From contig JAURPG010000106.1 in assembly GCA_030835405.1 (NCBI GenBank), positions 6,067-70,066 on the forward strand: DNA of 64,000 nucleotides, in the 5' to 3' direction. The notes under the pieces are model-generated. The model worked only from the letters and a program-made list of their open reading frames with translations, ran no database searches and was not told the DNA's origin. Of the stretch, positions 5,165 to 50,322 are shown piece by piece; the first letter of the stretch is position 1; every line of letters starts with the position of its first letter. The translations under genes were made by a program, and so were the position numbers. This DNA comes from Gammaproteobacteria bacterium. Lineage in GTDB: Bacteria > Pseudomonadota > Gammaproteobacteria > Eutrophobiales > Eutrophobiaceae.

Positions 5165-5947
5165 TTAATCAACACATCCATTTTCAATAGATGACAGGCA
5201 TTTGTTATATGTTGCCACCGCTTCATTCAACAGGTGTGACGGAATATCAATTTTAACGCGGTCCTCTACCTTGAGAATTTTTCCTGATTTAATCCTGTTC
5301 GATGGGTCTCCACGATAACCGGTATATCTATATAATTTGTACGTAGTCGATAATGAATGTTTCAGGTTGAGAAATTTCTGCAATCTTTCGAGTGTGACGG
5401 AAGATTCTTCAATCAAGTCCTCGTATTTTATTAATATGGAATTATCTGGAAGAGAAACGCCTTTAGCAATTTGTTCAATATTATTTATTCGACTAATATA
5501 GTATCGTGTTCCGCGTTCAACCGGCCAATTACCATATATAGGTTCAAACGTATTGACTATGCTGGATATTGTTTCTTCGGGTCTTCTCAGCAGAAATATT
5601 CTTTTTAATCCCGGATAATTTAGCACGTCGATATTCGGTGTCATTTTTTCATGATTGATCTGGTCAATAATTATTTTTCCATGGCTGAGAATTATTCTTT
5701 GCTGTTTGCAAATATCCAGGGCCAGGGTATTAAGATCCTCGATATCGTGGTAAGTTTTATTTCTTTCGCCACCTGCAATTATTTCTGGATGACTTGCCAG
5801 TAAATGCAGTAATAAAGTAGAACCAGAGCGCATGTGCCCAAGGATAAATGCGTACTTTTCCTGGCATTGCAGCCGGTTAATATACACGACCAGTTGCTTC
5901 TGGAAATCTGAATACCATTTTATTAATCTCGATTCTTCTCTGTCCAT
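5165..5947 (-). CDS. PAPS-dependent sulfotransferase
   Basis: It has the ILGHMRSGSTLL P-loop-like 5'-PSB motif near the N-terminus and is 260 aa. Confidence 0.65.
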   Translation of the reverse strand: MDREESRLIKWYSDFQKQLVVYINRLQCQEKYAFILGHMRSGSTLLLHLLASHPEIIAGGERNKTYHDIEDLNTLALDICKQQRIILSHGKIIIDQINHEKMTPNIDVLNYPGLKRIFLLRRPEETISSIVNTFEPIYGNWPVERGTRYYISRINNIEQIAKGVSLPDNSILIKYEDLIEESSVTLERLQKFLNLKHSLSTTYKLYRYTGYRGDPSNRIKSGKILKVEDRVKIDIPSHLLNEAVATYNKCLSSIENGCVD

Positions 5948-7271: not shown

Positions 7272-7325
7272 CACGATATATTATTAGTCCACGCCTCATT
7301 ACAAAAAACAGGGACAGAAATCAGC

Positions 7326-8321: not shown

Positions 8322-8420
8322 TACGATAAGCATGTAACTGTTTTATCAAAAAAAGATGAATGAAACATAAAAGTCACGTTTACGAGATGAGTTCTATAAA
8401 TATGAATATGGAGATTTTCA

Positions 8421-9854: not shown

Positions 9855-9870
9855 ACACGAGTGAGTATTC

Positions 9871-11277
9871 ATGCCTGACTTAATCCTGACACACGGTTAT
9901 TTCCTGTGTGAAGACCCAAAAGAACAGGAAATTATGAAACCATATGCCCCTCTGGGCCTGATGTATTTGTCTGCATATCTAAAGGGCAAAGGATTTAATG
10001 TCGAAATTTTTGATTCGATGTTTTCAAATCGAGAAACGCTGGAAGAATTTCTCAGAAATAATGCCAATGGTGTCCTTGGCATATATACAAATTTAATTAC
10101 CCGGTCGAGCGTACTCAATATTATTTCAATGGCAAAAAAACATGGATTTCAAGTCATTCTTGGCGGCCCTGAATCTGCAAACTATCCGCAAGAATATCTG
10201 AATCATGGTGCCGACGTGATTGTCCTGGGAGAAGGAGAACAGACCCTGGAAAAACTATTACCTGCCATTCAGAATCCCGGTTCGGCAGGCCTTCAGGCTG
10301 TTGATGGTATCGTTTTTAAAGATAAATCTGGTAACCTGATCACTACTAATCCGAGAATATCACCCAATGATCTTGCTATTTACCCCTGGCCCGACAGGGA
10401 ATCCATAGATATAAGGAAATATCTGCAGGTCTGGCGTGATCATCATGGGCTTGGCAGTATCAGTATGATTACTGCAAGGGGCTGTCCCTATCGTTGCACA
10501 TGGTGTTCCCATGCAGTTTACGGCTACAGCCATCGACGGCGTAAGCCGGCCGATTGTGCCAGTGAGCTTGACTACATCATGAATGAATATTCTCCGGATC
10601 AGATATGGTATGCGGACGATGTATTTACCATAAGCCATCCATGGTTATATGAGTATTCAGCCCAGTTAAAAAACAGGGGATTGAAAGTGCCGTTTGAAAC
10701 AATTTCCCGCGCAGACAGGCTAATGAAACCGGAAGTTTTGGACACGCTTGTAGAGATGGGTTGTGATCGAATCTGGATTGGCTCGGAGAGCGGCAGTCAA
10801 AAAATACTCGATGCAATGCAACGTGATGTGACAGTGGAGCAGATTCAGTGGGCCTCACATGAGCTGAAAAAAAGGGGGATAAAAGTCGGTATGTTTCTTA
10901 TGTGGGGTTACGGGAATGAAACACTTGAGGATATTGAAAAAACAGTGGAACACGTAAAAATTTCTGACCCGGATGTTTTTTTTACTACAATTGCCTATCC
11001 TATTAAAAATACGCCTTTTTATAACGAGTTCAGTGACAGCATAACAATGTCCGGAGATTGGGCTTCGGGTACGGATAGGGATTATAAAATATCAAATCAA
11101 CGGGGCCCTGAATATTATAAGGCTGCTGACATTCTGCTGTTTAATTCTGTTGAGGCTTCCCGTAATCAATATAGCGACCACAAAGAAAGTTTAATACATA
11201 AAAAACTTGCAGATGATGCAAGGTTATACTTACAGGAATATGAACGAAAGCACATCATCAATAAGACAGGTATTTAA
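9871..11277 (+). CDS. B12-binding domain radical SAM enzyme, a tandem paralogue of the upstream gene
   Basis: The architecture is the same: PYAPLGLMYLSAYLKGKGFNVEIFD followed by RGCPYRCTWC (CxxxCxxC). Blocks such as SPDQIWYADDVF match SPDHIWFMDDIF in the upstream paralogue. The gap to the upstream gene is 16 nt. Confidence 0.8.
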   Translation: MPDLILTHGYFLCEDPKEQEIMKPYAPLGLMYLSAYLKGKGFNVEIFDSMFSNRETLEEFLRNNANGVLGIYTNLITRSSVLNIISMAKKHGFQVILGGPESANYPQEYLNHGADVIVLGEGEQTLEKLLPAIQNPGSAGLQAVDGIVFKDKSGNLITTNPRISPNDLAIYPWPDRESIDIRKYLQVWRDHHGLGSISMITARGCPYRCTWCSHAVYGYSHRRRKPADCASELDYIMNEYSPDQIWYADDVFTISHPWLYEYSAQLKNRGLKVPFETISRADRLMKPEVLDTLVEMGCDRIWIGSESGSQKILDAMQRDVTVEQIQWASHELKKRGIKVGMFLMWGYGNETLEDIEKTVEHVKISDPDVFFTTIAYPIKNTPFYNEFSDSITMSGDWASGTDRDYKISNQRGPEYYKAADILLFNSVEASRNQYSDHKESLIHKKLADDARLYLQEYERKHIINKTGI

Positions 11278-12034
11278 TCAGCTTGCTGCACATTACGATA
11301 CGATATTTACAAATACCGATATTGGCAGGATGCTTCGACAACGTACACATGACCTGCTTAATGGAATGTTTACTCCGGGGCAAACAGTTCTTGTTCTAAA
11401 TTGTGGCACCGGTGAAGATGTTATTCACCTGGCCAGGCAGGGCATAAATGTTTTAGCATCGGATAACTCGGAAGAAATGATCAAGTTTGCAAAAATTAAA
11501 GTGAATCAAGCCGGTTTAAATCATATGGTTGAATTCAGGCAGATAAATTTTGATAAACTTGATTACAGCCTTTCCTCTGGAGAAACGTTTGACGGGATAA
11601 TATCTAATTTTGGTGGAATAAATTGCTCCTCAGACATATCGCAGGTAGTAAAAAATATTGCAGATTATCTGCGGCCGGGTGGCAAGCTCTACCTTTGTAT
11701 AATGGGGCAGTTCGTACCATGGGAGTGGTTATACCTGGGGGTAAGAGGGAAGTATAAGAGGATTTATCATAGATTCAGAGGTAGCTGTATATGGAGAGGA
11801 CAGGAAATAAAGTATTATTCCCCGGCTGAAATCGAGACGTATTTGTCGATACATTATCGATCTACTCAATGTAGTGGGCTTGGGTTTCTCATTCCTCCCA
11901 GTTATGCAGGAAAATTGTTCTCAAAATTCCCCCGTGTTTTTTATTTTTTGAACTGGGTTGAGAAACATTTAGAAACTTTTTTCCCAATTCCTTTGCTTAG
12001 TGATCACTTTGTTTTTAAATCAATAAGAAAGTGA
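11240..12034 (+). CDS. Class I SAM-dependent methyltransferase
   Basis: SAM motif I is VLVLNCGTGEDV, and a post-I acidic residue is present. The ORF is open from 11207, but the Met at 11240 avoids most of the overlap with the upstream gene. The stop overlaps the next start (ATGA). Confidence 0.7.
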   Translation: MNESTSSIRQVFNQLAAHYDTIFTNTDIGRMLRQRTHDLLNGMFTPGQTVLVLNCGTGEDVIHLARQGINVLASDNSEEMIKFAKIKVNQAGLNHMVEFRQINFDKLDYSLSSGETFDGIISNFGGINCSSDISQVVKNIADYLRPGGKLYLCIMGQFVPWEWLYLGVRGKYKRIYHRFRGSCIWRGQEIKYYSPAEIETYLSIHYRSTQCSGLGFLIPPSYAGKLFSKFPRVFYFLNWVEKHLETFFPIPLLSDHFVFKSIRK

Positions 12035-12954
12035 AACATTCCCGCGATTGGCAAGGAATATGTCCTGTCTGTAAATCAGAAATAGGAACCCTGACATGGC
12101 CGGGAAAGAATATTGATTGTGGTGATTGTCTGGAATCATTTAAATCAATAGAGGGGATTTATCAGCTTATACAACCAGGGCGTCTCAATGCCTATAAGCA
12201 GTTTCTGGACGATTATACCAGCATAAGAATTGCAGAAGGCCGGGGTGATCATGGCCATGATTACTATTGCCGACTGCCAGAGCCCACTGTGTCGGACCCA
12301 TTATCATGGCAATGGAAAATCAGAAGTAAGAGCTTCAAAACCCTGGTATCTGTACTGGATCTGGAATCTACCAGGCAACGCAGAATCCTTGATCTGGGTG
12401 CCGGAGTGGGGTGGTTGTGTCATCGTGTGGCATCATTGGGGCATTACCCCATAGCAATTGATATCAACATGGATGAAATGGATGGACTCAGGGCAGGAAG
12501 GTTTTATGACAGGAGCTGGCCCTGCATACAGGCTGAATTCGATAACTTGCCCATCCAGAATGAACAGGCAGATTTGGCCATATTCAATGCGAGCTTACAC
12601 TACAGCACAGACTATTACGGTACTCTGAAAGAAGCACTAAGGGTCCTGAGGGGGGATGGGCAGTTAGTGATAATCGATTCACCAATATACAGACGGCCCG
12701 ACAGTGGTATCAATATGAAGTTACAACGACACGAATTTTTTAATAAGGTATACGGTTTTAGATCTGACAGTATTGACAGTATTGAATTCCTGACCTGGGG
12801 AATGCTTGAAGAGTTGGAGAAAAAACTCGAAGTAAAATGGAGGATAATCAGGCCATGGTATGGATTACGATGGGCTATGCGCCCGCTGACATATGCAGTT
12901 AAAGAATCGCGCGAAGCATCAACATTTGCAATTTTAATGGGAACCCGGGCCTGA
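12031..12954 (+). CDS. Methyltransferase with an N-terminal 4-Cys zinc-ribbon (Trm112-like) domain
   Basis: The N-terminus has CPVC...CGDC. Downstream lies SAM motif I, ILDLGAGVGW. The gene is translationally coupled on both sides. Confidence 0.6.
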   Translation: MKHSRDWQGICPVCKSEIGTLTWPGKNIDCGDCLESFKSIEGIYQLIQPGRLNAYKQFLDDYTSIRIAEGRGDHGHDYYCRLPEPTVSDPLSWQWKIRSKSFKTLVSVLDLESTRQRRILDLGAGVGWLCHRVASLGHYPIAIDINMDEMDGLRAGRFYDRSWPCIQAEFDNLPIQNEQADLAIFNASLHYSTDYYGTLKEALRVLRGDGQLVIIDSPIYRRPDSGINMKLQRHEFFNKVYGFRSDSIDSIEFLTWGMLEELEKKLEVKWRIIRPWYGLRWAMRPLTYAVKESREASTFAILMGTRA

Positions 12955-13961
12955 TGAATAAATTGACATCCTTGCCTGCAAACGACGATATGGTTAAACA
13001 ACTACCAATCATGGTTTTAATGCTTAAATCAGATTGCAACTGTCGCTGCACGATGTGTGATATCTGGAAAGGAAATTCCAGCGAGTCACTGGAATATGAT
13101 GGTGTTAAGGATCTGGTGAAGCAACTTCAATCTCTAGATACACATGAGATTGTACTCAGTGGCGGCGAGCCATTGATGCACAGGGAAATCGAGTCGGTTT
13201 GCAGGTTATTGTCGACAATGAATTTCAGAGTCACCCTGATTACTACAGGATTGTTACTCAAACGTCATGCGCAATGGATTAGTAAATATATCGATCAAAT
13301 ATACATCAGTCTTGATGGACCAGAAAAAGTACATAATTCTATCAGGAACATTCCAGGTGCTTATGTAAAAATTAAAAAAGGTGTGGAAGCAGTCCGGCAT
13401 TACAGACCGGACATTAATATTGGAGCACGTTGTACCATACAAAAACAAAATTACAGGTATATCGGTGATACTGTCGATGCAGCCAGGGAGTTGGGTATGA
13501 ACACCATCAGTTTCCTGGCAGCAGATGTCAAGGCTGAAGTTTTTGGCAGGACCAGTGACTGGAAAGATAACGGGATTGCCCTGACCGGTACAGAGCTTTC
13601 TGAGCTTGAAGATATTCTTCAGCAATTTTTCATAAATTATAAAAATGATTTTGATTCAGGATTTATAGTTGAAGATAGAAATAAATTACAGACAAAACTA
13701 CTAGATTATTATCACGCCCTCAGTACGGACAGGAATTTCCCCGGGGTGGATTGTAACGCACCATGGGTTTCAGCAGTCGTAGAAACAAACGGAAAAGTAA
13801 GGCCCTGTTTTTTTCATAAACCCTATGATGAAGCTCTGGATAATAAATCCGTCAATGAGATCATTAATTCTGATACGGCAAAAAAATGGAGAAAAGAACT
13901 GGACGTCAAAACCAACGATATCTGTCGAAGCTGTGTTTGTTCGCTTTCGTATGGCGTATGA
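12954..13961 (+). CDS. Radical SAM enzyme with a C-terminal SPASM/twitch-like Cys cluster
   Basis: The rSAM cluster is CNCRCTMC (C-x3-C-x2-C). The C-terminal region has additional cysteines (C...C...CRSCVC) compatible with auxiliary Fe-S cluster ligation. Confidence 0.7.
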   Translation: MNKLTSLPANDDMVKQLPIMVLMLKSDCNCRCTMCDIWKGNSSESLEYDGVKDLVKQLQSLDTHEIVLSGGEPLMHREIESVCRLLSTMNFRVTLITTGLLLKRHAQWISKYIDQIYISLDGPEKVHNSIRNIPGAYVKIKKGVEAVRHYRPDINIGARCTIQKQNYRYIGDTVDAARELGMNTISFLAADVKAEVFGRTSDWKDNGIALTGTELSELEDILQQFFINYKNDFDSGFIVEDRNKLQTKLLDYYHALSTDRNFPGVDCNAPWVSAVVETNGKVRPCFFHKPYDEALDNKSVNEIINSDTAKKWRKELDVKTNDICRSCVCSLSYGV

Positions 13962-14039
13962 GCACACAAAATATTGTGCGGTTATTCGTCTGTAGAACGT
14001 GTCCGATAATTATAGCCTGCAACGATCAGTATTAAGTAT

Positions 14040-15230
14040 TTGTATTATTATTCATTAATCATATTGAGTCAGTTAGATTTGAGTCCGTCACTGAACATCG
14101 TTTTTATCACCCCGGGAGGTGTGGACAGGAGTGGCCGTGAAAGGGTCATACCACACTTTTTATGGCTGCTTGAAAAGCTCTCGTTAAATCATAATGTAAA
14201 AGTGATAAGTTTATTTCAGTATGATTCTGCCTGTGAATATTCACTTAACGGCATACAGATTTCTGTTCCCGGGAAGATACGGCAAGACTGGAAAACTGAT
14301 AAGGAACCCGGGACAGTATTGAATGATTTGTACGAAGCATGTATCGCATACCTGGATCCTGCTGAACCGGTTGACATTGTCCATGGCTTGTGGGGATTTC
14401 AGGCCGGTTGGATTGCCACCAGAATTGCATCTTCGTTAAAGATTCCTTCTGTAGTGAGTTTGATGGGAGCCGAGTTTGTATCTTTTCCGGACATCAAATA
14501 TGGTGGGCAGTACTGGGAACATCAACGGTTGACATTAAATGATACTTTAAAAAATGCCACTGCATTAACTGTTGCAAGTCACTTTATGCAAGATATGGCT
14601 TCCGCATACAGTATAGAAACTGATTACATACCTTTTGGCGTACATGAGTCCTGCTTTCAGGACAACGGGGCACTGGATATTCCAACCTGGCGACTCCTGA
14701 CTGTTGCGAGTATAAATAGAATAAAGGATTTTTTTACCTTGATTGAGGCCTTCAGGATAGTTGTTGATGAAATCAATGATGTTCAACTGGATATTATTGG
14801 TGAAGATGTCATGGATGAGGAAATACAGGCGTTATCTGACAGATTATGTCTGACTAATCATGTTAACTTTCATGGATTCCTGCCAAATGACGAGATACGG
14901 AAATATTTCCAGAGGGCACATCTGTATGTGGTTACCTCGATAAACGAAACCGGACCAATAGCCATGCTGGAAGCTGCGGCTTGTAAAGTAGCAACTGTGG
15001 GAACCAAAGTTGGATATGTATCTGACTGGGACGGTAAACGCTCACTGGCTGTGGAGTCCCAGAGCCCTGGTAAGCTTGCAGTGCAGATAATCTATCTGAT
15101 AAAGCACGAACCAGTCCGAAAAAATCTCGGTATGGCCGCATATAAATGGGTTCGGGAGTATGATGTAAACTGGACTTCTAACAGACTAACTAAACTTTAT
15201 CTTGACCTGATAAATAATCATATGGATTAA
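14040..15230 (+). CDS. Glycosyltransferase family 4 (group 1); the true start is probably downstream of the annotated ATG
   Basis: The C-terminal region has ETGPIAMLEAAACKVATVGT, the E-x7-E GT4 signature. The first 15 or so codons (MYYYSLIILSQLDL...) look non-coding. A TTG near IVFITPGG is a plausible alternative start. Confidence 0.65.
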   Translation: MYYYSLIILSQLDLSPSLNIVFITPGGVDRSGRERVIPHFLWLLEKLSLNHNVKVISLFQYDSACEYSLNGIQISVPGKIRQDWKTDKEPGTVLNDLYEACIAYLDPAEPVDIVHGLWGFQAGWIATRIASSLKIPSVVSLMGAEFVSFPDIKYGGQYWEHQRLTLNDTLKNATALTVASHFMQDMASAYSIETDYIPFGVHESCFQDNGALDIPTWRLLTVASINRIKDFFTLIEAFRIVVDEINDVQLDIIGEDVMDEEIQALSDRLCLTNHVNFHGFLPNDEIRKYFQRAHLYVVTSINETGPIAMLEAAACKVATVGTKVGYVSDWDGKRSLAVESQSPGKLAVQIIYLIKHEPVRKNLGMAAYKWVREYDVNWTSNRLTKLYLDLINNHMD

Positions 15231-15313
15231 ACTGGGTGTCACATAGTATTCAAGCAGTGGTAACAGTTCATTACCTTATTTTTCACAAATATATTTAAAA
15301 CGTTTAATCAGGC

Positions 15314-15338
15314 AGGGAGAATGGGACCCTCTCCCTTT
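15314..15338 (+). terminator. Candidate intrinsic terminator hairpin downstream of the GT4 gene
   Basis: A 7-bp stem agggaga/tctccct with a 9-nt loop is followed by TTTAT. Confidence 0.3.
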
Positions 15339-15526
15339 ATGTGAACCCGGAATTGCTTTGCATTTTAGATAGCACTTACTCGTAACAGGGACTAAAAGCA
15401 AGATGGAAAAACTGATTTTTAGAGGTCTTTAGCGGGATAATCCCTGTCTGTTTCAATGGTAATTAACTATATCTATGATATACAATGATTTACACTCAAT
15501 TGGCATTATGAATCGGGATAGCTAAT

Positions 15527-16462
15527 TTGAAAACACATAATATTCTTGTCCTTTTGACTGCTTGTGCAATATTGTCCTTGTTCTTGCCAGATGTCGCCTA
15601 TGCCCAGGCAACGCAGAATCAGGCAGGCACATATATCGGCACCCAGGTTTGTTCGTCCTGCCACAATGACCTTTCAGATCACTGGTCCCATACAGTGCAT
15701 TCAAAGATTTTCATGAATAACCCGGGAAATGAAATTGAGCGCCGGGGCTGTGAATCATGCCATGGCCCCGGCTCAGAGCATATAATAGATCCAACGGCGG
15801 TGGATAAAATAATCAGGTTTTCCCAAAATGCACCAAGCCCAACCGGGGAACAGAATCGATCATGTCTCCAGTGTCATGCCGGCGGAAATCGAATCCACTG
15901 GTCAAGCTCAATACACGAAAGTAATGATTTGGCCTGCGCTGATTGTCATAACCCGATGGCAAACTTCTCCTCTGTTAATCTACTGGTGCAAAACAATATT
16001 AATGAGACCTGTTTCATGTGTCACAAGGAACAACGTAGCCAGTTTAACAGGCGATCACATATGCCGTTGAATGAAGGTAAAATGTCATGCACTGACTGCC
16101 ATAACCCCCATGGCAGTAATACGGATAGCCTGCTGAAAACTGATAATGTGAATCAGACCTGTTTTCAATGCCATGCGGAAAAAAGAGGTCCTTTCCTCTT
16201 TGAACATGCCCCGGTAACCGATAATTGCCTGAACTGCCATGAACCCCATGGTTCGAACCATGAAAAATTACTGCTTACAGCCCGCCCAATGTTATGTCAG
16301 CAGTGCCACACATCCATCGGGCATATGAATGACCTGTTTACATCAGGAAATCTTGCAACGGGTAGTCGCCCGGACATACGCCTAATTGGGAGAAGTTGCC
16401 AGAATTGTCATACGCAGATCCATGGATCCAACCATCCGGCAGGATCAAAATTCCAACGGTAG
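15527..16462 (+). CDS. Periplasmic decaheme c-type cytochrome of the MtrA/MtoA/PioA family
   Basis: Ten CxxCH haem-binding motifs are spread over 311 aa (CSSCH, CESCH, CLQCH, CADCH, CFMCH, CTDCH, CFQCH, CLNCH, CQQCH, CQNCH). A signal peptide is present. The apparent start codon is TTG. Confidence 0.8.
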   Translation: MKTHNILVLLTACAILSLFLPDVAYAQATQNQAGTYIGTQVCSSCHNDLSDHWSHTVHSKIFMNNPGNEIERRGCESCHGPGSEHIIDPTAVDKIIRFSQNAPSPTGEQNRSCLQCHAGGNRIHWSSSIHESNDLACADCHNPMANFSSVNLLVQNNINETCFMCHKEQRSQFNRRSHMPLNEGKMSCTDCHNPHGSNTDSLLKTDNVNQTCFQCHAEKRGPFLFEHAPVTDNCLNCHEPHGSNHEKLLLTARPMLCQQCHTSIGHMNDLFTSGNLATGSRPDIRLIGRSCQNCHTQIHGSNHPAGSKFQR

Positions 16463-16483
16463 TATCCATATCAAATTCATCAG

Positions 16484-18973
16484 ATGAAAATTAACGTCCA
16501 TATATGTAAATTTCCCATTCATGCATTGATATGTATTATTTTAACACCCGGGTTACTTCAATCTGCTGAGTTACCGGAAAGATCAAATCATCTCAATTCC
16601 GGGGTATCTTCGAAAGGGAGCCTGGTGGCAAAGAGTGACTTTAACAAGTTCCAGGAAAGATTAAGAACTCCCGGTGGTTTTCTGATACCCGATGCCCCTG
16701 AACAGCAGTCCTTAAAATCTGTCTCTGACAGTGAGTGGTTATATTCACTATCTATTAATGCCGGGTACATTAATGCTTCCGGTAATGAAAATTCTGCCCA
16801 GTTTAAAGAATACGGGGACTGGGATAATGGACTCGTTTTGAAACGATTTTCAGGTGTACTTGAAAATCCCGGGACTGCCCACTACTTCAAGTTAGGCGGT
16901 GGGAGTTTGGGCAGAAACGATCAGTTTTTGAATTTTTCTTCCGGTAAATATGGAAAATATAATTTTTCCCTGGCGTTTGATGCTACGCCTCATGATTTTG
17001 CAAATAATGCCCAGGTGCTTTGGGATGGCGCAGGAAGCAATATCCTTACATTGCCAGACGGCCTCGTCCCCGGAAACAGTACGGCAGCAGATGTCACTAT
17101 GGCGCTTCAGGTGATTGATGGTTCTGATATAAAACTTGAAAGGGACAAGCTCAGTGTTGCTTTTGACGTCGATTATCTACCAACTCTGAATTTCCATGCT
17201 GAGGGTTCTGTCGAATGGCGGGATGGTGGCAGGCCTATTGGTGGAGGATTTTCCTATCCTGGTTCCGGCCAGGTCACTGAAATAATTGAGGCGATAGATT
17301 ACACGACCTATGAAATCAATTTAGGTCTCGCATACAGCGGTACAGGCAGGCAGCTGAATTTTTCGTATACGGGATCCCTGTTCGTAAATAATTACAGCGC
17401 CCTGACGTGGGAAAATCCAGGCGTTTCACCGTTTACGGCATATGCACCGCGAAGGGGCCGTTATGCGCTTGCACCTGACAACGAGTTTCATAATTTTAGA
17501 GGTGATTTTGTAACCAAATTACCATTCTGGAATAGTAGGTTAACTGTAGTGTCATCGTATTCTATTTCAAGCCAGAATGATCTATTGATTCCTCCAACAA
17601 TCAGCTCTGGAACGATTACAAGCGGGCCCAGTACCATTAATCTCAATCTTTGGAATACGGTTGAGGCACTTTCCACAGACAGGGCCAATGCAGAAATAAG
17701 AAATTTGAATTTACAGTCAAGAATTATTTTAAACCCTGTCAGGAAAATAAGGTTAAGGGGCGAAGTAAAATATACTGATAGGGACAACAGGACAGATTAT
17801 ACAGCATTAAATCCACTTACCGGGGAGTATGGATATATTGTAATGGATGGTGGCCTGGATGCATTAGCACCATCCCTGACAGGTATTTATAATCCTTTAC
17901 GTCCGGGAAGCCGGGTCAGGTTTAAAAATATTCCTTTTGACAAAGACACATTCCTGATTACTGCAGGGGTGGATTACCTGGTGACCAATAAACTGAAGAT
18001 GGGTTTGAGATATTATCGGGACCATCAGGATTATCGTCACAGGGAAGTGGATAAACTAATCGAGGACAGAATTAAGCTTAACCTTGTTTATCGGGACCGT
18101 AAAATAGGCACGCTCAGGACGTCATATGAATACCGTGACAGGGATAGTGATGGTTATAATTTTAACCCGTACGAGGAATTCTATACTTCGTCGTTACCTG
18201 CTTATATACCTCGCCTTGCAGATGGCGATGATCCTCATACGTTGAGTGATTTGCGGAAGTATGACGTCGCAAGCAGAAAGAAACATACATTAAAAGGCAA
18301 ATACAATTCTATCATTGTTGAAAATCTTGATCTTACACTAACCGGTCAATATTCAGATGAAAATTTTGATGCACAGTATGGATTAAGGGAAAAAGATTCA
18401 TTATCTGCAAACCTGGATTTGAACGTATATATGGGTTTAAATAAAAGTATATATGCTTATTACTCATTTCAATCCAGCAAAAGTTATTATGCAAATATAA
18501 ATAATGCAGGCGGGGCATTTTCTGATCCATTTGCCGGTGGACCCCGGTATCCTCTGGATCGTGCGTGGACTGGAAGTGCGAGGGAAAAAAACAATAGCAT
18601 TGGGGCAGGGATTAATTTTGGTGTTGACGATGTATTAATTAATCTGAGTTATACGTACATCAGGTCCAGGTCCAGGTTTCAATATAATTTTAATTCAACT
18701 GCAGCTTTTAATAATACATTAACCGAACAGGAAGTTGGCACCGGGTTTCCCGACCAGATATTCAGCAATCATCACCTGCAATCAAACATAACGTGGTCGG
18801 TTCGAGAAAATACAAAACTGAATTTTCTCTACAGGTATGAGACTGAAAAAGTAAGTGATTTTCATTACCAGGGGATAACAAATTCTATTGTTGATGACTC
18901 AATTCTGTTGCTTGCCTTGCCGGAAAATTTTAATAGTCATGTGGTAGGGTTATTTATTGAGAACAATTTTTGA
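16484..18973 (+). CDS. Outer-membrane beta-barrel porin of the MtrB/MtoB/PioB family, sheath for the decaheme cytochrome
   Basis: It is 829 aa and lies 21 nt downstream of the decaheme gene. It has a signal peptide, the alternating hydrophobic/aromatic composition of beta-barrels rich in Y/N/G/S/T, and a C-terminal ...IENNF ending in an aromatic residue as outer-membrane proteins typically do. Confidence 0.65.
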   Translation: MKINVHICKFPIHALICIILTPGLLQSAELPERSNHLNSGVSSKGSLVAKSDFNKFQERLRTPGGFLIPDAPEQQSLKSVSDSEWLYSLSINAGYINASGNENSAQFKEYGDWDNGLVLKRFSGVLENPGTAHYFKLGGGSLGRNDQFLNFSSGKYGKYNFSLAFDATPHDFANNAQVLWDGAGSNILTLPDGLVPGNSTAADVTMALQVIDGSDIKLERDKLSVAFDVDYLPTLNFHAEGSVEWRDGGRPIGGGFSYPGSGQVTEIIEAIDYTTYEINLGLAYSGTGRQLNFSYTGSLFVNNYSALTWENPGVSPFTAYAPRRGRYALAPDNEFHNFRGDFVTKLPFWNSRLTVVSSYSISSQNDLLIPPTISSGTITSGPSTINLNLWNTVEALSTDRANAEIRNLNLQSRIILNPVRKIRLRGEVKYTDRDNRTDYTALNPLTGEYGYIVMDGGLDALAPSLTGIYNPLRPGSRVRFKNIPFDKDTFLITAGVDYLVTNKLKMGLRYYRDHQDYRHREVDKLIEDRIKLNLVYRDRKIGTLRTSYEYRDRDSDGYNFNPYEEFYTSSLPAYIPRLADGDDPHTLSDLRKYDVASRKKHTLKGKYNSIIVENLDLTLTGQYSDENFDAQYGLREKDSLSANLDLNVYMGLNKSIYAYYSFQSSKSYYANINNAGGAFSDPFAGGPRYPLDRAWTGSAREKNNSIGAGINFGVDDVLINLSYTYIRSRSRFQYNFNSTAAFNNTLTEQEVGTGFPDQIFSNHHLQSNITWSVRENTKLNFLYRYETEKVSDFHYQGITNSIVDDSILLLALPENFNSHVVGLFIENNF

Positions 18974-18997
18974 ACTAATTTGAAATTATTATAATAA

Positions 18998-19927
18998 ATG
19001 GGCAAGAAAAATTTTTTATCCGTAATCGTTATATGTTACAACATGATCCGGGAGGCCCCTCGAACGGTCTATTCATTATCGAAAAAATATCAGAAAAGAA
19101 TAAGACTGGAAGATTATGAAATTATCGTCATAGATAATAACTCTAGCGAACTGCTTAACAAGGAAGAAATAGAAGGAATTGGTCCCAATATTACCTATTA
19201 TTACCATGAATCCGGATCTGCCTCGCCCGTGAGTTCAATTAATTTTGGTATAGGGAAGTCCAAAGGTGAATATGTCGGCATCTTGATCGACGGGGCCCGT
19301 ATCGTAAGTCCAATGGTCCTTAACTGGGCGTTATATTCGCTGTAGACTCTTTATAATCCGTTTGTATCAACATTGAGCTGGTATTTGGGTGAAGATCAAT
19401 AGTTTATATCTGTTCCAAAAGGCTATTCCAGGGAATATGAAGATCAACTACTGGATGAAATTGACTGGAGATCCAATGGTTACAAGTTATTCTCCATATC
19501 AACATTTGCAGGCTCATCGAAGCCGGGTTTTTTTTAGTCAATTTCAGAAAGCAATGGTGTATTTTTAAGTAAAAATTTATATGAACGTGTTGGTAGATAT
19601 GATCCCGAATTTGATCTGCCAGGCGGCGGTCTATGCAACCTGGATTTTTATAAACGGGCCGTCGAATTCCCGGAAGTGACTCATGTAATATTATTGGGAG
19701 AAGGGACATTTCACCAGCACCACTATGGTATCACCATGAGCAGTCGTTCAATTGATGTCATAAACTTGCTCGACAAGTACCATGATCAATATAAGGAAAT
19801 AAGGAAAAGTGAATTTACCAGCCCAAAAACTAATCCGGTTTTTGTTGGAAATATTCCAGATAGTGTATTGCCATTTATTCAGGAATCTATTGTCAATGCT
19901 ACCGATAACAATCCTACTTGTGAATAA
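18998..19927 (+). pseudogene. Family 2 glycosyltransferase: one continuous 310-codon frame interrupted by three in-frame TAG codons (19343-19345, 19400-19402, 19535-19537)
   Basis: The N-terminus (SVIVICYNMIREAP...EIIVIDNNSS) and C-terminus (LYERVGRYDPEFDLPGGGLCNLDFYKRA) are GT2-like. ORFs 18998-19345 and 19676-19927 are in the same frame. The stretches between them translate cleanly with no frameshift, and the only interruptions are three TAG codons. Confidence 0.6.
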
Positions 19928-19957
19928 AGTTTTAGTTAGTCGAGATATTTTATTCTG

Positions 19958-21181
19958 ATGAATGATAATACATATGCAAGCAATAATGGTGAACTTGTTC
20001 TACTTTCTACCCGCCAACATATGGGCCGGGAAACGGCGGAAAAAATCAGTCTGTTATTTAAAACAGAACTGGACTGGAAAAAAATAGTTTCAATTGCAAA
20101 AAGAAACAAAGTCGTTCACCTGGTAGATAAAACCATGACCGAACACTTTGACGGCATGGTTGATTCAGAAGATTTGCAGGCACTTACTGATGAATCGCAG
20201 GTGCATTTTAAAAGTAATGAGGATAGTCTTGATTTGTTATTGGATATCAAGACACTGTTGTTGTCTGAAAGCATCCCCGTCATTTTCTTTAAGGGTATTA
20301 TCTTTGCCCATGTGTATAACAAGGACTATAAATTTCGAACACAGGGCGATATTGACATACTGGTCAGACCGGAAGATTTCCTGAAAGCAAGGGATATACT
20401 AGTAAGAAATGGTTTTGAGTCTGTTTATTTCGGTCATGCTGAAGTGTCAACTGTCCAGGCACAACTGGGCAGGAGCGACAGGCGAGCCAGCGTTGACTTG
20501 CACTATGGGGTCACCCCCCAGTACCAGCAGACCAATATGGATGAGGCATTAAGCGGAAGTAAATTTGACAAAAAATACCGTAATAAAATCGTCAAAAACC
20601 GTACCTACTGGTTTTGTCAATTTCAAACTGAAGAAATCTGGAAACGCAAAATCCAGATTGAGATAGAAGGCGAAACCATTACCACGCTGTCCCACGAAGA
20701 TACGCTCCTGGTGGCTGTCATTCATGCGGCAAAAGAAAACTGGAGATCGATGAGCAGAATAAGTGATATCACTGCGATTATAGAAACAAGCGGAAACCTG
20801 AACTGGGAAATTATCTATGAAACGGTAAGTGGATTGGGCTTTTTAAAAAAGTTTTATCTCGGTATCAGGTTAGCAAACGAGATGTATGATGTTGAATTGC
20901 CTGTAAATGTAATCAGGATGATGAATAAACATGGTTCAAAGTATCTCGCCAGACAGATTATCTTTAGACTGACCCTGGATAACTTTACTGTTGATATGGA
21001 AGAATTCAGGCGAATCGTTGCAATTATGACGATGGATTCAATCACAGATTTTTTCAGGTACCTGCAATATGTATTCAATACTCCGGCGGGTCCAACCGGC
21101 AAGGAGATAACCCAGGGAAATTTCCTGGGCTTTTTAAAGGTATTATCCGGTCAATATATACGGAAATTTCTATCCCGCTAA
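19958..21181 (+). CDS. Nucleotidyltransferase-family protein (uncharacterised NTP_transf_5-like type), as found beside HprK-like kinases and sulfotransferases in RiPP clusters
   Basis: It has the QGDIDILVRPEDF acidic motif characteristic of this nucleotidyltransferase fold. Size is 407 aa. Confidence 0.5.
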   Translation: MNDNTYASNNGELVLLSTRQHMGRETAEKISLLFKTELDWKKIVSIAKRNKVVHLVDKTMTEHFDGMVDSEDLQALTDESQVHFKSNEDSLDLLLDIKTLLLSESIPVIFFKGIIFAHVYNKDYKFRTQGDIDILVRPEDFLKARDILVRNGFESVYFGHAEVSTVQAQLGRSDRRASVDLHYGVTPQYQQTNMDEALSGSKFDKKYRNKIVKNRTYWFCQFQTEEIWKRKIQIEIEGETITTLSHEDTLLVAVIHAAKENWRSMSRISDITAIIETSGNLNWEIIYETVSGLGFLKKFYLGIRLANEMYDVELPVNVIRMMNKHGSKYLARQIIFRLTLDNFTVDMEEFRRIVAIMTMDSITDFFRYLQYVFNTPAGPTGKEITQGNFLGFLKVLSGQYIRKFLSR

Positions 21182-21333
21182 CCCCATCTATCTGGCAATA
21201 ATACCTTCAATACGACAAAAAGTTATGTAACTAACTGATTTCAATATAATTTGCCGGATTATGCATAAGGTTTTATACTCGGGTATATATGGTGCAGCTG
21301 TCACTATCAGGAAATCCAGGAGACACTTATCCA

Positions 21334-23760
21334 ATGCAAATGGTCATTCGGTTATTTATTTTATTTTTTCTCACATTTAGCGTTGTATGTAATTCACAAG
21401 ACAGAAATAGTGATCAGGCTGGAGATTTCGTAAGGTATGAAACCCTCGTCAGCCAGTATTGCGTAACCTGTCATAACGATACCTTACGCACAGCAGGGTT
21501 TTCACTTCAGCAGGCAGATCTCACCAATATGGGTGAATATGCCGAGACCTGGGAAAAAGTCCTGCGTAAGGTCAAGGTCAAGACCATGCCTCCATCAGGT
21601 ATGCCGCGGCCAGATGATGCTACTTATAAGGCCTTTGCTGATTTTCTCACCACCAGCCTTGATAGGCATGCTTTAGATAATCCAAGGCCAGGTGTTGCGG
21701 CAATTCGTCGCCTGAACCGTACCGAGTACTTCAACGCAATTCGTGACCTGCTGGCGGTTGAAATCAATGACAGTACTATCCTGCCCGCCGATGACACCAT
21801 GTACGGGTTTGACAATGTGGGAGCGGTTCTAACTTTATCACCCATGTTGACGGAGCAGTATATAACCGCAGCACGGAAAATCCGTTACCAGGCCCTGGGC
21901 CATCCGGATATGCCACCGGAGTTTTTTACCTACAATGCCCCAAGGTATTTAATGCAGGAAGACTGGGTCAGTGATGACCTGCCGTTTGGTTCACGGGGTG
22001 GGATGTCAATACAACATCATTTTCCCATGGATGGGGAATATGTCCTGCAGATCCGGTTACAAAAAAATTCCAGGGATTATATTCGTGGGTTGGTGCATAT
22101 TCCTCATGAAATAGATATCCGCCTGGATGACAAGCAAATCGCAAGGCTTTCAGTCGGTGGCGAAAAGTTTGGAAAATCATCGGGGATGTTTTCCTCCAGT
22201 GCCCAGGGGCACCCTGATCAGGAACAATATGAAAGATACAGTGATGAAGCATTGGAAGTTCGTTTCAATGCAAAGGCCGGCACAAGAAAAGTCTCCGTTG
22301 CATTTCTGAAGAAACTGGCCTTGCCTGAAGAGCCTTCATACAGCCAGATGTCTATCATTGATTATGCCCAGCTCAAGGCCGGAGTCCCCGGTATAGGCAC
22401 CATCAGGATAGGTGGTCCTTATAATTCCACGGTCTCAACGGAATCTGAGACGCATAAGAAGATATATGTCTGTACCCCCAGAAATGACAGGGACACAAAC
22501 TGCGCAGAAAAGATTATCTCCAACCTCGGCAGACTGGCTTATCGCCGGACGTTAACCCGTCTGGAGCTGGATGGGCTCATGGAATTTTTTCAGCAGGGCC
22601 AAAGGGCCGGCGGGTTTGACGAGGGCATTGGTCTTGCCATGGAAAGGATCCTGGCCGGGCCAAAATTCCTGTTTATCATCGAGCAGGCACCCGAAGAGGT
22701 CAATGAAGGTGATATCTTTGCTATCTCTGACCTGGAACTGGCGACCCGGTTGTCCTTGTTCCTGTGGAGCACCATGCCGGATGATGAATTGCTGAGCGTG
22801 GCGGAGTCCGGGCAACTGCGTAAATCACAAGTCCTCAAACAGCAAATTCTGCGCATGCTTGGCGACCCCCGTTCACGGACCTTGGTAAATAACTTCGCAG
22901 CGCAATGGCTGACGCTTGGCAGGCTGAATGCCTCTGCACCTAATGGCGAGATATTCCCTTATTTTGACGATAATCTGAGGCAGGCCTACCGTACGGAAAC
23001 GGAGATGTTTTTTGATTACGTATTTCGAAACGACAGGCCACTACTGGAATTGCTTGATGCAGATTACACCTTTGTAAACGAAAGGTTGGCAAAGCATTAT
23101 GGTATTCCTGATGTGTTTGGCAATCATTTTAGAATGGTGGAGTTAACAGATGGTACCCGTGGGGGCTTGCTGGGACAGGGCAGTATCCTGACGGTGACGT
23201 CCTATGGGAATCGAACCGCACCTACCATACGCGGTAAATGGATCCTGGAAAACATACTGGGGGCACCACCGCCACCGCCACCAGCCAATGTCCCGGGGCT
23301 GCTGGATAAGAATGACGAAGGGAAGGTGCTGAATATGCGCCAGCAAATGGAACAGCACCGGGCAAATCCCGTGTGTGCCAGTTGCCACAAGGTCATGGAT
23401 CCCCTGGGTTTTGCGCTGGAAAATTACGATGCCATTGGTAAATGGCGTACCATAGATGCCGCTTCCAAAGAACCGATTGATGCCTCCGGGGCGTTGCCCG
23501 ATGGCACGCCATTTATTGGCTTGGCAGGCCTTAAGGAAGTATTAATGGAGAAGCGCCAGTATGATTTTATCATGACCGCCATTGAAAGAATGCTAACTTA
23601 CTCGCTTGGAAGGGGAATAGATCACCGGGATGCCCCCGCCATGCGCGAAATTATGAGACAGGCAGAACCGGACAATTATCGATTATCTTCTATAATTATG
23701 GCAATCATTGAGAGTATGCCATTTCAGATGAGGAGGGCACCTAGCCATGATGATATTTAA
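21334..23760 (+). CDS. Large secreted DUF1592/DUF1595/DUF1587/DUF1588-type protein with an N-terminal c-type haem (PSCyt-like) domain
   Basis: There is a signal peptide (MQMVIRLFILFFLTFSVVC), then CVTCHND (CxxCH) and a second CASCH. The roughly 800 aa length and the immediately following DUF1552 partner fit this Planctomycete-type pair. Confidence 0.6.
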   Translation: MQMVIRLFILFFLTFSVVCNSQDRNSDQAGDFVRYETLVSQYCVTCHNDTLRTAGFSLQQADLTNMGEYAETWEKVLRKVKVKTMPPSGMPRPDDATYKAFADFLTTSLDRHALDNPRPGVAAIRRLNRTEYFNAIRDLLAVEINDSTILPADDTMYGFDNVGAVLTLSPMLTEQYITAARKIRYQALGHPDMPPEFFTYNAPRYLMQEDWVSDDLPFGSRGGMSIQHHFPMDGEYVLQIRLQKNSRDYIRGLVHIPHEIDIRLDDKQIARLSVGGEKFGKSSGMFSSSAQGHPDQEQYERYSDEALEVRFNAKAGTRKVSVAFLKKLALPEEPSYSQMSIIDYAQLKAGVPGIGTIRIGGPYNSTVSTESETHKKIYVCTPRNDRDTNCAEKIISNLGRLAYRRTLTRLELDGLMEFFQQGQRAGGFDEGIGLAMERILAGPKFLFIIEQAPEEVNEGDIFAISDLELATRLSLFLWSTMPDDELLSVAESGQLRKSQVLKQQILRMLGDPRSRTLVNNFAAQWLTLGRLNASAPNGEIFPYFDDNLRQAYRTETEMFFDYVFRNDRPLLELLDADYTFVNERLAKHYGIPDVFGNHFRMVELTDGTRGGLLGQGSILTVTSYGNRTAPTIRGKWILENILGAPPPPPPANVPGLLDKNDEGKVLNMRQQMEQHRANPVCASCHKVMDPLGFALENYDAIGKWRTIDAASKEPIDASGALPDGTPFIGLAGLKEVLMEKRQYDFIMTAIERMLTYSLGRGIDHRDAPAMREIMRQAEPDNYRLSSIIMAIIESMPFQMRRAPSHDDI

Positions 23761-25090
23761 AAAATCCATTCCACGCAGAACGTTCCTACGCGGGGCCGGC
23801 GCAAGCATTGCCTTGCCAGTACTTGACGCCATGTTTCCGGCACTGGCTTCAACAAAGGCAGCAATGGAGGTCCCCAGACGGTTTTCCATTGTTTATATCC
23901 CCAATGGGGTCAACATGGCCCATTGGACGCCAAAGCAAACCGGTAAATCATTCGAGATCACACGTGCTATCAAACCATTGGCCAGTTACCAGGACAAGAT
24001 GCTGATGTTGACTGGTCTCAGTAATACACCAGGTGATGCATTACCAGGTGAAGGTGAAACCGCACCCCATGAACGGGCGGGCGGGGTTTTTCTTACCGGA
24101 GTCCATCCCTTAAATGAAGGTCGCACAGGCGTATCTATTGACCAGATCATTGCCCGGGAACTGGGCAAAAAGACCCAGTTGGCCTCCCTGGAAATGGGGC
24201 TGCATACCAAGGATGTGATTGGAAATTGTGAAAAAGGCTGGAGCTGCGCCTATTTGAGTACGCTTTCCTGGCGAACGCCAACCACCCCGATGCCTATGGA
24301 ATACCGTCCCCGTGCTGTTTTCGAACGGCTTTTTGGTGGCAGTAGTAGTACTGACAGGGGCGCACGCATGGAGCGCATAAACAAGGAAAAAAGTATCCTT
24401 GATGATATTACCCGTGAGGCCCGGCAAATGATGAATTCATATGGGCCAAACGACAAGGCCAGATTAACTGAATACCTGGACGGGATGCGTGACGTTGAAC
24501 GACGGATTCAATTGGCAGAACAACAATCTTCCCGTGAATTGCCAACGATGGAACGTCCATCAGGGGTACCTAATGATTTTGTCGATCACCTGAAATTGAT
24601 GTTTGACCTTCAGGTCCTGGCATTCCAGACAGACATGACCCGCATGATTACCTTCATGACGGCACCGGAACAGAATAACCGCACTTATGGGCAGATCGGC
24701 GTGCCCGATGTACACCATTCTGTTTCCCATCACCGGGATGATCCCTCTAACCTGGAAAAATTAGCCAGGATCGATGAGTACCATTCCCAACTGTTCAGCT
24801 ATTACCTGGACAAGTTGCATAATACCCAAGATGTTGACGGATCTTTACTGGACAATATGATCGTTATGTATGGCGCGGGAATGAGTGATGGTAATCAACA
24901 CCTGCTACATAATCTGCCTATCATGCTGGTAGGGGGTGGTTCCGGACAACTTAAAGGCGGCCGGCACATCAAGTACAAGTTAGATACACCCATGTCGAAT
25001 TTATATCTTTCCATTCTGGACAAGCTGGATATCCCGCTTGAGAAGTTTGGAGACTCCACGGGTAAATTAAATCTTGCGGCAACGGCATAA
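23747..25090 (+). CDS. DUF1552 family protein with a Tat signal
   Basis: The N-terminus is IPRRTFLRGAGASIALPVLDAMFP, the canonical DUF1552 start with a twin-arginine motif. It overlaps the upstream gene by 14 nt. Confidence 0.7.
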   Translation: MMIFKKSIPRRTFLRGAGASIALPVLDAMFPALASTKAAMEVPRRFSIVYIPNGVNMAHWTPKQTGKSFEITRAIKPLASYQDKMLMLTGLSNTPGDALPGEGETAPHERAGGVFLTGVHPLNEGRTGVSIDQIIARELGKKTQLASLEMGLHTKDVIGNCEKGWSCAYLSTLSWRTPTTPMPMEYRPRAVFERLFGGSSSTDRGARMERINKEKSILDDITREARQMMNSYGPNDKARLTEYLDGMRDVERRIQLAEQQSSRELPTMERPSGVPNDFVDHLKLMFDLQVLAFQTDMTRMITFMTAPEQNNRTYGQIGVPDVHHSVSHHRDDPSNLEKLARIDEYHSQLFSYYLDKLHNTQDVDGSLLDNMIVMYGAGMSDGNQHLLHNLPIMLVGGGSGQLKGGRHIKYKLDTPMSNLYLSILDKLDIPLEKFGDSTGKLNLAATA

Positions 25091-30120: not shown

Positions 30121-30150
30121 AGAATTATACTCAGGATATGAATAGTCAGA

Positions 30151-49569: not shown

Positions 49570-50322
49570 ATGCGTATTTATATATTATTGACAGTCCTTT
49601 TATTTAATTCTGGTTGGTTGTTTGCAGCTGAAGGTGAGATGCTATATGAATTTTCACCGGATCTTACTGATCAGCAAGCATTGCAGCGAGGCGCCAGGAC
49701 GTTTGTTAATTATTGCCAGACCTGTCACTCTGCATCATATATGCGTTATAACCGCATGGGAGAGGATCTGGGAATCCCTGACGATGTATTGCTTGAAAAT
49801 TTTATGTTTGGTACGGATAAGGTCGGAGATACCATGGAAATTGCCATGTCTGCCGAGGACGGCGAGAAGTATTTTGGTATTGCACCACCCGACCTGTCTG
49901 TTACTGCAAGAGCGAGGGGGGCGGAGTGGCTTTATAATTACCTGATGACCTTTTATCTGGATCCTGCCAAACCGACCGGGGTAAATAACCTGGTGTTCAG
50001 GGATGTTGCTATGCCTCATGTCCTGTGGGAATTGCAGGGCTGGCAGTCAGCCGTCTACCATGAGGAAACAGGGGAGGATGGGGAGCTTGTCAGGACAATA
50101 GACCATCTCGAGATAACTTCAGAGCCAGCTAGTAAACCTCAAGCTTATCAGGGAGAAAGTTACGAGCAAACGGTAAGTGATCTTGTGAATTTTATGGTTT
50201 ACCTTGGAGAACCTATACAATTAAAACGTAAGTCGTATGGTGTCTGGGTTATTCTCTACCTGGTATTTTTACTGGTAATCGTCTACTTCCTTAAAAAGGA
50301 ATATTGGAAAGACGTATACTAG
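49570..50322 (+). CDS. petC: Cytochrome c1
   Basis: It has a signal peptide, one CQTCHS haem motif and a C-terminal TM anchor. Confidence 0.85.
   Translation: MRIYILLTVLLFNSGWLFAAEGEMLYEFSPDLTDQQALQRGARTFVNYCQTCHSASYMRYNRMGEDLGIPDDVLLENFMFGTDKVGDTMEIAMSAEDGEKYFGIAPPDLSVTARARGAEWLYNYLMTFYLDPAKPTGVNNLVFRDVAMPHVLWELQGWQSAVYHEETGEDGELVRTIDHLEITSEPASKPQAYQGESYEQTVSDLVNFMVYLGEPIQLKRKSYGVWVILYLVFLLVIVYFLKKEYWKDVY

Follow-up and report, generated by a model that had tools for sequence, protein, structure and literature searches.

The best described relatives of the gene pair discussed here are conduits in which a decahaem c-type cytochrome is combined with an outer-membrane porin. In the MtoAB system of Sideroxydans lithotrophicus ES-1 and other neutrophilic Fe(II) oxidisers, which is found together with CymA and MtoD, the decahaem gene is followed by the gene of an MtrB/PioB-family porin and there is no extracellular multihaem cytochrome (He et al. 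2017, PMC5566968). PioABC of Rhodopseudomonas palustris TIE-1 is likewise built around a two-component conduit without an outer cytochrome, and the MtrCAB and MtrDEF types have three components. MtrAB/MtoAB/PioAB homologues are also common in Proteobacteria that are not known as iron oxidisers or reducers, and such conduits are called "orphan" conduits below. Here, we focus on positions 15527-18973 of a stretch of 64,000 nucleotides from a Gammaproteobacteria bacterium (contig JAURPG010000106.1; the whole stretch is called the window below). Judging by sequence and a structural model, these positions almost certainly encode a true MtrAB-type trans-outer-membrane conduit. It lies within an island of biosynthetic genes, and MtrAB adjoins the same gene set in 11 of 15 non-redundant informative loci. 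On balance, we favour reading the pair as an MtrAB/MtoAB/PioAB-type conduit that is a conserved accessory of a biosynthetic pathway.

The decahaem cytochrome and its outer-membrane barrel

An earlier note on this DNA had described a 311-aa protein starting at 15527 with exactly ten CxxCH motifs and a signal peptide, followed 21 nt later by an 829-aa barrel ending in phenylalanine, and all of this holds. The ten motifs of the cytochrome (hereafter MtrA) lie at residues 42, 75, 113, 137, 162, 188, 212, 234, 257, and 291; variants of the CxxxCH or CxxCK kind are absent from the protein. The decahaem family model TIGR03508 (DmsE/MtrA) gives 264.5 bits against a curated cut-off of 192.2, and the best solved relative is Shewanella baltica MtrA (Protein Data Bank (PDB) 6R2Q_A, E=1.3e-65), with 43% identity in the core. 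Ten CxxCH motifs in 311 residues together with family scores above their cut-offs are far beyond chance. An alignment of 16 members of the MtrA clade contains exactly ten invariant histidines outside the motifs, which is what ten bis-His haems require; eight of these align with histidines of S. baltica MtrA, one is offset by a single residue, and the tenth falls outside the aligned S. baltica fragment.

By inspection, the N-terminus (MKTHNILVLLTACAILSLFLPDVAYA, followed by Q) appears to be a Sec-type signal peptide with a lysine-containing n-region, a hydrophobic core, and a cleavage site AYA before that Q, so the protein looks like a periplasmic export substrate. The TTG start, already suspected in the earlier note, is the only one possible in frame, since the reading frame opens a mere five codons upstream (15512) and no ATG or GTG precedes the signal peptide; the orthologues start with ATG or GTG. 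A protein identical to the window MtrA is present in two further assemblies, and exact window proteins are present in the NCBI metagenome-assembled genome GCA_040265195.1.

The barrel (MtrB) starts 21 nt after the end of MtrA and terminates in ...IENNF. It is recognized by PF11854 (E=9.1e-102, 342 bits against a cut-off of 23) and by the MtrB/PioB model TIGR03509 (257.7 bits against a curated cut-off of 240.05), and it matches PDB 6R2Q_B in sequence (E=1.3e-18). Its AlphaFold (AF2) model, built on 21 homologues, has 26 long strands (predicted local distance difference test 76.7, predicted template-modelling score 0.74), and the top PDB fold is again 6R2Q_B (E=8.4e-39, TMt 0.88). A CXXC motif has a role in the MtrB of metal-reducing Gammaproteobacteria. 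This N-terminal motif, described for Shewanella MtrB (PMC12175506), was sought in the window MtrB and not found; the only cysteines are at residues 8 and 17, within the signal peptide, and the mature part is cysteine-free.

The two identities that had been named beforehand as refuting this assignment were both rejected. For the cytochrome, this was NrfB (five haems, about 190 aa), whose models stay far below their cut-offs (NF008659, 43.6 bits against 184; TIGR03146, 35 against 166.6), and weak secondary matches to PF22678 (E=1e-11) and PDB 2OZY (E=6e-9) are all that speaks for it. For the barrel, it was a TonB-dependent receptor or alginate-export protein. TonB-dependent receptors do turn up as the next, distant folds, with a template-modelling (TM) score of about 0.4 against 0.88 for MtrB, and the 829-aa protein has no plug, TonB-dependent receptor, or alginate-export match in Pfam or NCBIfam. 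We regard an unrelated barrel or an NrfB-type cytochrome as refuted for practical purposes.

Turning to possible partners, the window was screened for other cytochromes by CxxCH counting and Pfam. The only other open reading frames (ORFs) with CxxCH motifs encode a DUF1592-family protein (two motifs; 21289..23760) and the cytochrome c1 of petABC (one motif; 49570..50322), the latter about 29 kb away. No MtrC/OmcA-like gene is present in the 64 kb (no other ORF has more than two CxxCH), nor is a CymA/NapC-, MtoC-, or MtoD-like gene, which extends to the whole window what had been claimed for the adjacent genes. A gene for the high-potential iron-sulfur protein (HiPIP) PioC is absent from the window as well, and the window shows no context of anaerobic metal respiration genes.

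The biosynthetic island and its recurrence beside MtrAB relatives

As had also been noticed, the pair sits between glycosyltransferase genes in an island of radical S-adenosylmethionine (SAM) and tailoring enzymes (Table 1). A GT4 gene lies upstream, separated from MtrA by 296 nt, a GT2 gene lies downstream, and the block contains three radical-SAM and two methyltransferase genes. One correction is needed: both glycosyltransferase genes are there, but GT2 carries three in-frame TAG codons. Whether the conduit was a hitch-hiker or functionally linked had been left open. The comparison of related loci (numbered L003, L005, and so on) favours a conserved association, and the mechanism behind the link is our inference.

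This comparison comprised non-redundant MtrAB loci with at least 4 kb of flank (n = 15). When only the loci picked blind to their neighbours are considered, 8 of 12 are linked to the island gene set. The closest strictly island-type homologue lies 42-5845 bp from MtrAB in the linked loci, which display at least eight gene orders, a GC content ranging from 0.40 to 0.67, and MtrB proteins with identities to that of the window as low as 35%. The recurring set consists of two B12-binding radical-SAM enzymes, a SPASM radical-SAM enzyme, methyltransferases, an amidohydrolase-like protein, in some cases an HprK-like protein, an NTP_transf_5 nucleotidyltransferase, and glycosyltransferases.

The gene order of the window is kept in L003, L005-L008, and L092, where MtrA is 75-81% identical. 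Other orders and orientations of the same families occur in L009, L010, L012, L109, L103, L097/L099, L098, and L106. In L009, the minus strand carries two methyltransferase genes, a B12-radical-SAM gene, and an HprK-like gene, followed by DUF6687 and SPASM genes, then a methyltransferase and a B12-radical-SAM gene, and then MtrAB. L010 starts with MtrAB, GT2, NTP_transf_5, a methyltransferase, and an amidohydrolase-like gene, after which the minus strand holds SPASM, two methyltransferase genes, and a radical-SAM gene. In L012 (Gammaproteobacteria bacterium RIFCSPLOWO2_02_FULL_56_15), MtrA is divergent from a methyltransferase and B12-radical-SAM pair and from an HprK-to-GT4 block. L109 has two B12-radical-SAM genes, two HprK-like genes, a sulfotransferase, a methyltransferase, a flavin reductase, and another B12-radical-SAM and methyltransferase gene, and then MtrAB and NTP_transf_5. 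MtrAB is even embedded in the middle of the cluster in L103, with GT4, amidohydrolase-like, GT4, SPASM, and GT4 genes on one side and a methyltransferase, a B12-radical-SAM gene, a methyltransferase, two B12-radical-SAM genes, and an ATP-binding cassette (ABC) exporter on the other. An amidohydrolase-like gene and a block of B12-radical-SAM and methyltransferase genes lie downstream in L097, L098, L099, and L102. Finally, in the cultured Nitrospirillum (L106), a cytochrome c2-type gene is followed by MtrA, MtrB, a methyltransferase, DUF218, an amidohydrolase-like gene, a methyltransferase, SPASM, a B12-radical-SAM gene, a methyltransferase, and a second B12-radical-SAM gene.

The MtrA proteins of these loci, from Gamma- and Alphaproteobacteria, share 58-82% identity within their clade and 38-45% with S. 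baltica MtrA. In a neighbour-joining tree with the S. baltica fragment (taken from the PDB alignment) as the only outside reference, they all form one clade, and linked loci are found in each of its three sub-branches. The comparison of the window with L003 is informative too: the island proteins and MtrA/MtrB are 54-75% identical and the adjacent DUF1592 and DUF1552 proteins 84-92%, which places MtrAB, in its divergence, with the island rather than the flank.

The Nitrospirillum locus deserves a separate mention. Its monohaem cytochrome c2-type gene (9585-10004 of L106) overlaps the start of the MtrA homologue, has its best PDB matches in the R. palustris and R. rubrum cytochromes c2 (E about 1e-26), and is a hint of the high-potential chain and thus of an uptake (Pio/Mto-like) direction in that organism. 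The MtrA encoded there has a PioA-like N-terminal extension of about 100 aa. A plasmid search with the Nitrospirillum MtrB returned no match. The genus is among those with pio/mto homologues in a sequence similarity network study (2023, mSystems, PMC10654088).

Table 1. Conduit and island genes of the window (positions refer to the window)
Feature	Position	Strand	Remarks
Sulfotransferase, possibly an island member	5165..5947	-	Pfam Sulfotransfer_3/1
Amidohydrolase-like protein, 392 aa	6093..7271	+	Weak amidohydrolase and TRZ/ATZ matches
HprK-like P-loop protein, 331 aa	7326..8321	+	Hpr_kinase_C E=1e-5; HprK_rel_A/B under cut-off
B12-binding radical-SAM enzyme a, 477 aa	8421..9854	+	PF02310 + PF04055; conserved in linked loci
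B12-binding radical-SAM enzyme b, 468 aa	9871..11277	+	PF02310 + PF04055
Class I SAM methyltransferase a (UbiE-like)	11207..12034	+	Listed TTG start
Class I SAM methyltransferase b	12031..12954	+	
Radical-SAM/SPASM enzyme, 335 aa	12954..13961	+	PF04055 + PF13186; anchor of the biosynthetic core searches
GT4 glycosyltransferase, directly upstream of MtrA	14040..15230	+	Conserved in L003, L012, L103
MtrA/MtoA/PioA/DmsE-family periplasmic decahaem c-type cytochrome, 311 aa	15527..16462	+	TIGR03508, 6R2Q_A, ten CxxCH
MtrB/MtoB/PioB-family outer-membrane beta-barrel sheath, 829 aa	16484..18973	+	PF11854, TIGR03509, 6R2Q_B
GT2 glycosyltransferase, after MtrB	18998..19915	+	70% identity to L003 orthologue
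NTP_transf_5 (PF14907) nucleotidyltransferase	19958..21181	+	E=3e-41

Several of the island genes keep close company with MtrAB elsewhere. Amidohydrolase-like homologues adjoin it in L003, L010, L094, L097-L099, L102, L103, and L106, and HprK-like homologues occur in the linked loci L003, L009, L012, and L109. The GT2 gene follows MtrB in L003, L005, and L010 as well, and an NTP_transf_5 homologue lies just 3' of MtrB (with or without GT2) in L003, L010, and L109, with a weak one in L093. The sulfotransferase of the L109 cluster belongs to the same Pfam families as that of the window, although tblastn found no sequence match between the two.

None of the island enzymes reaches an NCBIfam cut-off for a curated name, and their PDB relatives are weak and generic (BlsE, CteB, MoaA, CysS, AprD4, OxsB); the product of the pathway could therefore not be named. 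For the SPASM enzyme, the best curated family is PTO1314 (98 bits against a cut-off of 306) and the nearest structure BlsE (E=2e-10), and the nearest solved relatives of the B12-radical-SAM enzyme b (9CCB, CysS, AprD4, OxsB) match weakly. No precursor of a ribosomally synthesized and post-translationally modified peptide (RiPP) was found: small ORFs around the cluster in L009, L010, L006, and L108 do not resemble one another, and intergenic gaps in the window are short. We lean, weakly, towards a non-peptide substrate.

Regarding transcription, MtrA, MtrB, and GT2 (possibly with NTP_transf_5) may form one transcript because MtrB and GT2 are 24 nt apart without a terminator-like site between them; promoter and terminator scans were otherwise not above shuffled expectation. 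Methyltransferase a (275 aa from the listed TTG) probably starts later than listed, since its ORF overlaps the preceding B12-radical-SAM gene by 71 nt and the orthologue measures 264 aa. No riboswitch or other RNA element was found in the island; the only RNA genes of the window, RNase P RNA and one tRNA, both lie outside it.

A reverse search, anchored on the SPASM enzyme in GTDB species genomes, yielded at least 581 related loci, of which the best 80 were considered. They are spread over Gemmatimonadota, Chloroflexota, Bacteroidota, Acidobacteriota, Planctomycetota, and other phyla, and most of them keep B12-radical-SAM and methyltransferase neighbours. In a weak neighbour-joining tree of the SPASM enzymes, the MtrAB-linked clusters occupy three separate places, a pattern that suggests repeated joining or else an association kept for a long time. 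A gammaproteobacterial locus without MtrAB (L107, GCA_011087615.1) combines the cluster with two SCO1/SenC genes and with genes for a small cytochrome c, a Cytochrom_D1-like beta-propeller, and two proteins of considerable size (1215 and 710 aa) without Pfam matches, which may be another extracytoplasmic redox accessory set. In two Acidobacteria (Terriglobales/Acidobacteriota), a dihaem class-I cytochrome c gene is found right beside the SPASM gene (L056, 11859-12797; L077, 11838-12671). Apart from these, multihaem cytochromes next to the cluster in other phyla amount to a 7-haem TPR protein in L073; such scattered cases are suggestive and not systematic.

The surroundings of the island can be summarized shortly. 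GC content is 0.52 at positions 1-2000, 0.38-0.44 across the island (2001-21000), and about 0.50 at 22-26 kb. On its left side, the island holds genes for an SRAP peptidase, a metallophosphoesterase, a GT4, and the sulfotransferase; this part is not common to L003, which has an epimerase/dehydratase gene ahead of its amidohydrolase-like gene. Directly after the island (21289-25090) come the two-CxxCH protein mentioned above (823 aa; a DUF1592/1588/1587/1585/1595 "planctomycete cytochrome" protein) and a DUF1552 (HXXSHH) protein, followed by a 519-aa ankyrin-repeat protein (25118-26677). Measured against the relatives, the DUF1592/DUF1552 pair reaches 84-92% identity and the island proteins only 54-68%. 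Further along, the span 28591-31958 holds an amidase gene, a gene of the MbnB/TglH/ChrH family (DUF692; 30151-31044), and a 305-aa partner without a Pfam match, the pairing of DUF692 gene and partner being typical of peptide-modifying (RiPP-like) systems. The tRNA, a tRNA-Leu(CAA), lies just past this locus on the minus strand (31970-32056). The remaining genes are those of an ordinary chromosome: queA-tgt-secDF, murA, hisD, a DegS-like protease, petABC, lpoA, the RNase P RNA, and mraW-ftsI-murEF-mraY. Their order is suggestive of a gammaproteobacterium.

Possible coupling between conduit and pathway

Going by homology and modelling, the decahaem cytochrome, with its ten bis-His c-haems in a chain, is threaded through the 26-strand porin, and electrons could pass between the periplasm and the cell surface via this chain. 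Since no MtrC-type cytochrome is present, the outer haem at the surface-exposed end of MtrA would meet its substrate directly, as has been proposed for MtoAB and PioAB. Its task would most likely be to exchange electrons with a pathway product that is exported or bound at the surface, or to bring about an extracytoplasmic redox reaction of this product. The ABC exporter of L103 and the flavin reductase of L109 would fit extracytoplasmic redox chemistry, as would the cytochrome c2-type gene of Nitrospirillum, the SCO1/SenC and small cytochrome c genes of L107, and the acidobacterial dihaem cytochromes c; these are hints, not proof.

A functional coupling between conduit and cluster is probable in our estimation, because genes that are not under selection to stay together seldom remain neighbours through so much divergence and reshuffling. 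A more specific version would make this MtrAB clade the dedicated outer-membrane redox partner of the B12-radical-SAM/SPASM/methyltransferase/glycosyltransferase pathway, whose exported or surface-anchored, redox-active or metal-binding product either replaces MtrC or flavins at the outer end of the conduit or needs extracytoplasmic redox chemistry by the conduit. In that specific form, we offer it tentatively and consider it possible rather than probable.

Critically speaking, a number of findings weigh against any coupling. Its whole basis is gene neighbourhood, in a small set of loci that are not phylogenetically independent where they are related. With the biosynthetic enzymes in the cytoplasm and MtrA in the periplasm, any link must run via an exported product. 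In most arrangements, MtrAB lies on the opposite strand from the cluster, so that the two are separate transcription units there. Four of the 15 informative loci, all belonging to the same clade, are unlinked (L011; L105, from Nitrosococcus halophilus Nc4; L096; and L100). In the other direction, just one of the best 80 SPASM loci (L012) has MtrAB, and the other 79, including those from monoderm-type phyla, are conduit-free. The biosynthetic core is thus widespread and does not need the conduit, while conduits of this clade are usually found alongside the core. In the genome at hand, moreover, the island may be partly decayed, given the three stops in GT2.

The same facts can be read as those of a stand-alone MtoAB/PioAB-type conduit, serving Fe(II) oxidation, Fe(III) or electrode reduction, or iron acquisition, whose place beside the cluster is an inherited and locally shuffled accident without shared function. 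Stand-alone mtoAB(D) clusters without inner-membrane partners are indeed known, for example in Thiomonas (He et al. 2017, PMC5566968). The clade members without the cluster, the many clusters without MtrAB, and the usual position on the other strand are all what such hitch-hiking predicts, and the cytochrome c2-type gene that overlaps the MtrA start in Nitrospirillum makes an ordinary respiratory connection plausible. Neutral gene order, however, is rarely still in place once proteins have diverged to 35-40% identity, or between Alpha- and Gammaproteobacteria, and the adjacency has been kept through at least eight rearrangements and over the full range of GC content given above. The pair in L103 is embedded within its cluster, and linked clusters occupy several places in the (weak) SPASM tree. 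An accidental neighbourhood therefore seems a possible but rather doubtful explanation to us.

Decay of the island in this genome, with the conduit as a disused remnant, is a further alternative, and it is the GT2 gene 24 nt 3' of MtrB that suggests it. Its single frame contains TAG at 19343, 19400, and 19535, where orthologues have glutamine (codons CAG, CAA, and CAA). As TAG is the normal stop of 6 of the 44 long ORFs in the window, no genome-wide recoding is at play, and the gene could be a recent pseudogene or be read through locally, or the codons could stem from an assembly artefact. On the other hand, no other ORF of the island, MtrA and MtrB included, is truncated, the ten haem motifs and ten distal histidines are intact, and the identical MtrA recurs in two other assemblies. 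GT2 itself aligns with the intact L003 orthologue over 305 aa without a frameshift, so its stops may be recent or artefactual. We consider a disused remnant very unlikely and still favour the conduit as a conserved accessory of the pathway.

The pair is a new member of a known family. In the literature searched, the coverage of which is incomplete (it includes Baker et al. 2022, PMC8805035, as well as PMC5566968 and PMC10654088), there is no report of MtrAB or MtoAB beside radical-SAM or glycosyltransferase genes, and provisionally the conserved coupling to a radical-SAM/B12 cluster is undescribed. A conserved partnership with a biosynthetic cluster would provide a concrete hypothesis for the orphan conduits, with Nitrospirillum as a cultured handle, and would connect extracytoplasmic redox chemistry with a widespread, unnamed radical-SAM/B12 cluster that occurs in phyla of soil and sediment. 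Extracellular electron transfer, iron cycling, and bioelectrochemistry would all be concerned if the product served as an electron shuttle or chelated metals. Should the dedicated-partner version be true, it would add a new kind of system to extracellular electron transfer: the partner of the porin-cytochrome would be a small molecule or a glycoconjugate, specified by neighbouring genes.

Comparison with described conduits

By family, the window pair belongs to MtrA/DmsE and MtrB/PioB. The genes for a carrier and a quinol oxidoreductase that characterize the mtoAB-cymA-mtoD and pioABC operons are missing from the window. Compared with MtrCAB of Shewanella (6R2Q), it shares the MtrA core, with aligned haem motifs and distal histidines, and the 26-stranded MtrB fold. 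As it has neither MtrC/OmcA nor the CXXC of Shewanella MtrB, it is not of the three-component MtrCAB/MtrDEF type but resembles Mto and Pio, in agreement with the MtoAB/PioAB style that the earlier note had assigned to it.

The likeness to MtoAB and PioAB was judged from family membership and gene layout. With MtoAB, the pair has in common its sizes (about 310-330 aa and 830 aa) and the TIGR03508 and TIGR03509 families, but mtoD, cymA, and mtoC are missing from the window and the neighbours are biosynthetic enzymes. PioA has a long processed N-terminal extension. The alphaproteobacterial-type members of the clade (L097-L099 and L106) are PioA-like in this respect, with MtrA proteins of 412-450 aa and an N-terminal extension, whereas the window MtrA is short and comes without the PioC HiPIP, the place of which is taken by the cytochrome c2-type gene in Nitrospirillum. 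The porin-cytochrome of Geobacter (Pcc: OmbB-OmaB-OmcB) shares the principle of a cytochrome inside a porin that spans the outer membrane; it is not homologous and combines an octahaem periplasmic with a dodecahaem outer cytochrome (PMC4245776, PMC5566968).

By analogy, the nearest conceptual precedent would be DmsEFAB of Shewanella oneidensis, the extracellular dimethyl sulfoxide (DMSO)/iodate reductase, where an MtrAB-type module feeds a dedicated partner that is not a cytochrome and is encoded by adjacent genes (PMC9732548). The window cytochrome even falls in the family that NCBI names after DmsE. Unlike in DmsEFAB, the neighbours are not an exported molybdoenzyme but cytoplasmic radical-SAM, methyltransferase, and glycosyltransferase enzymes, so that the partner of the window conduit would be a product rather than a protein.

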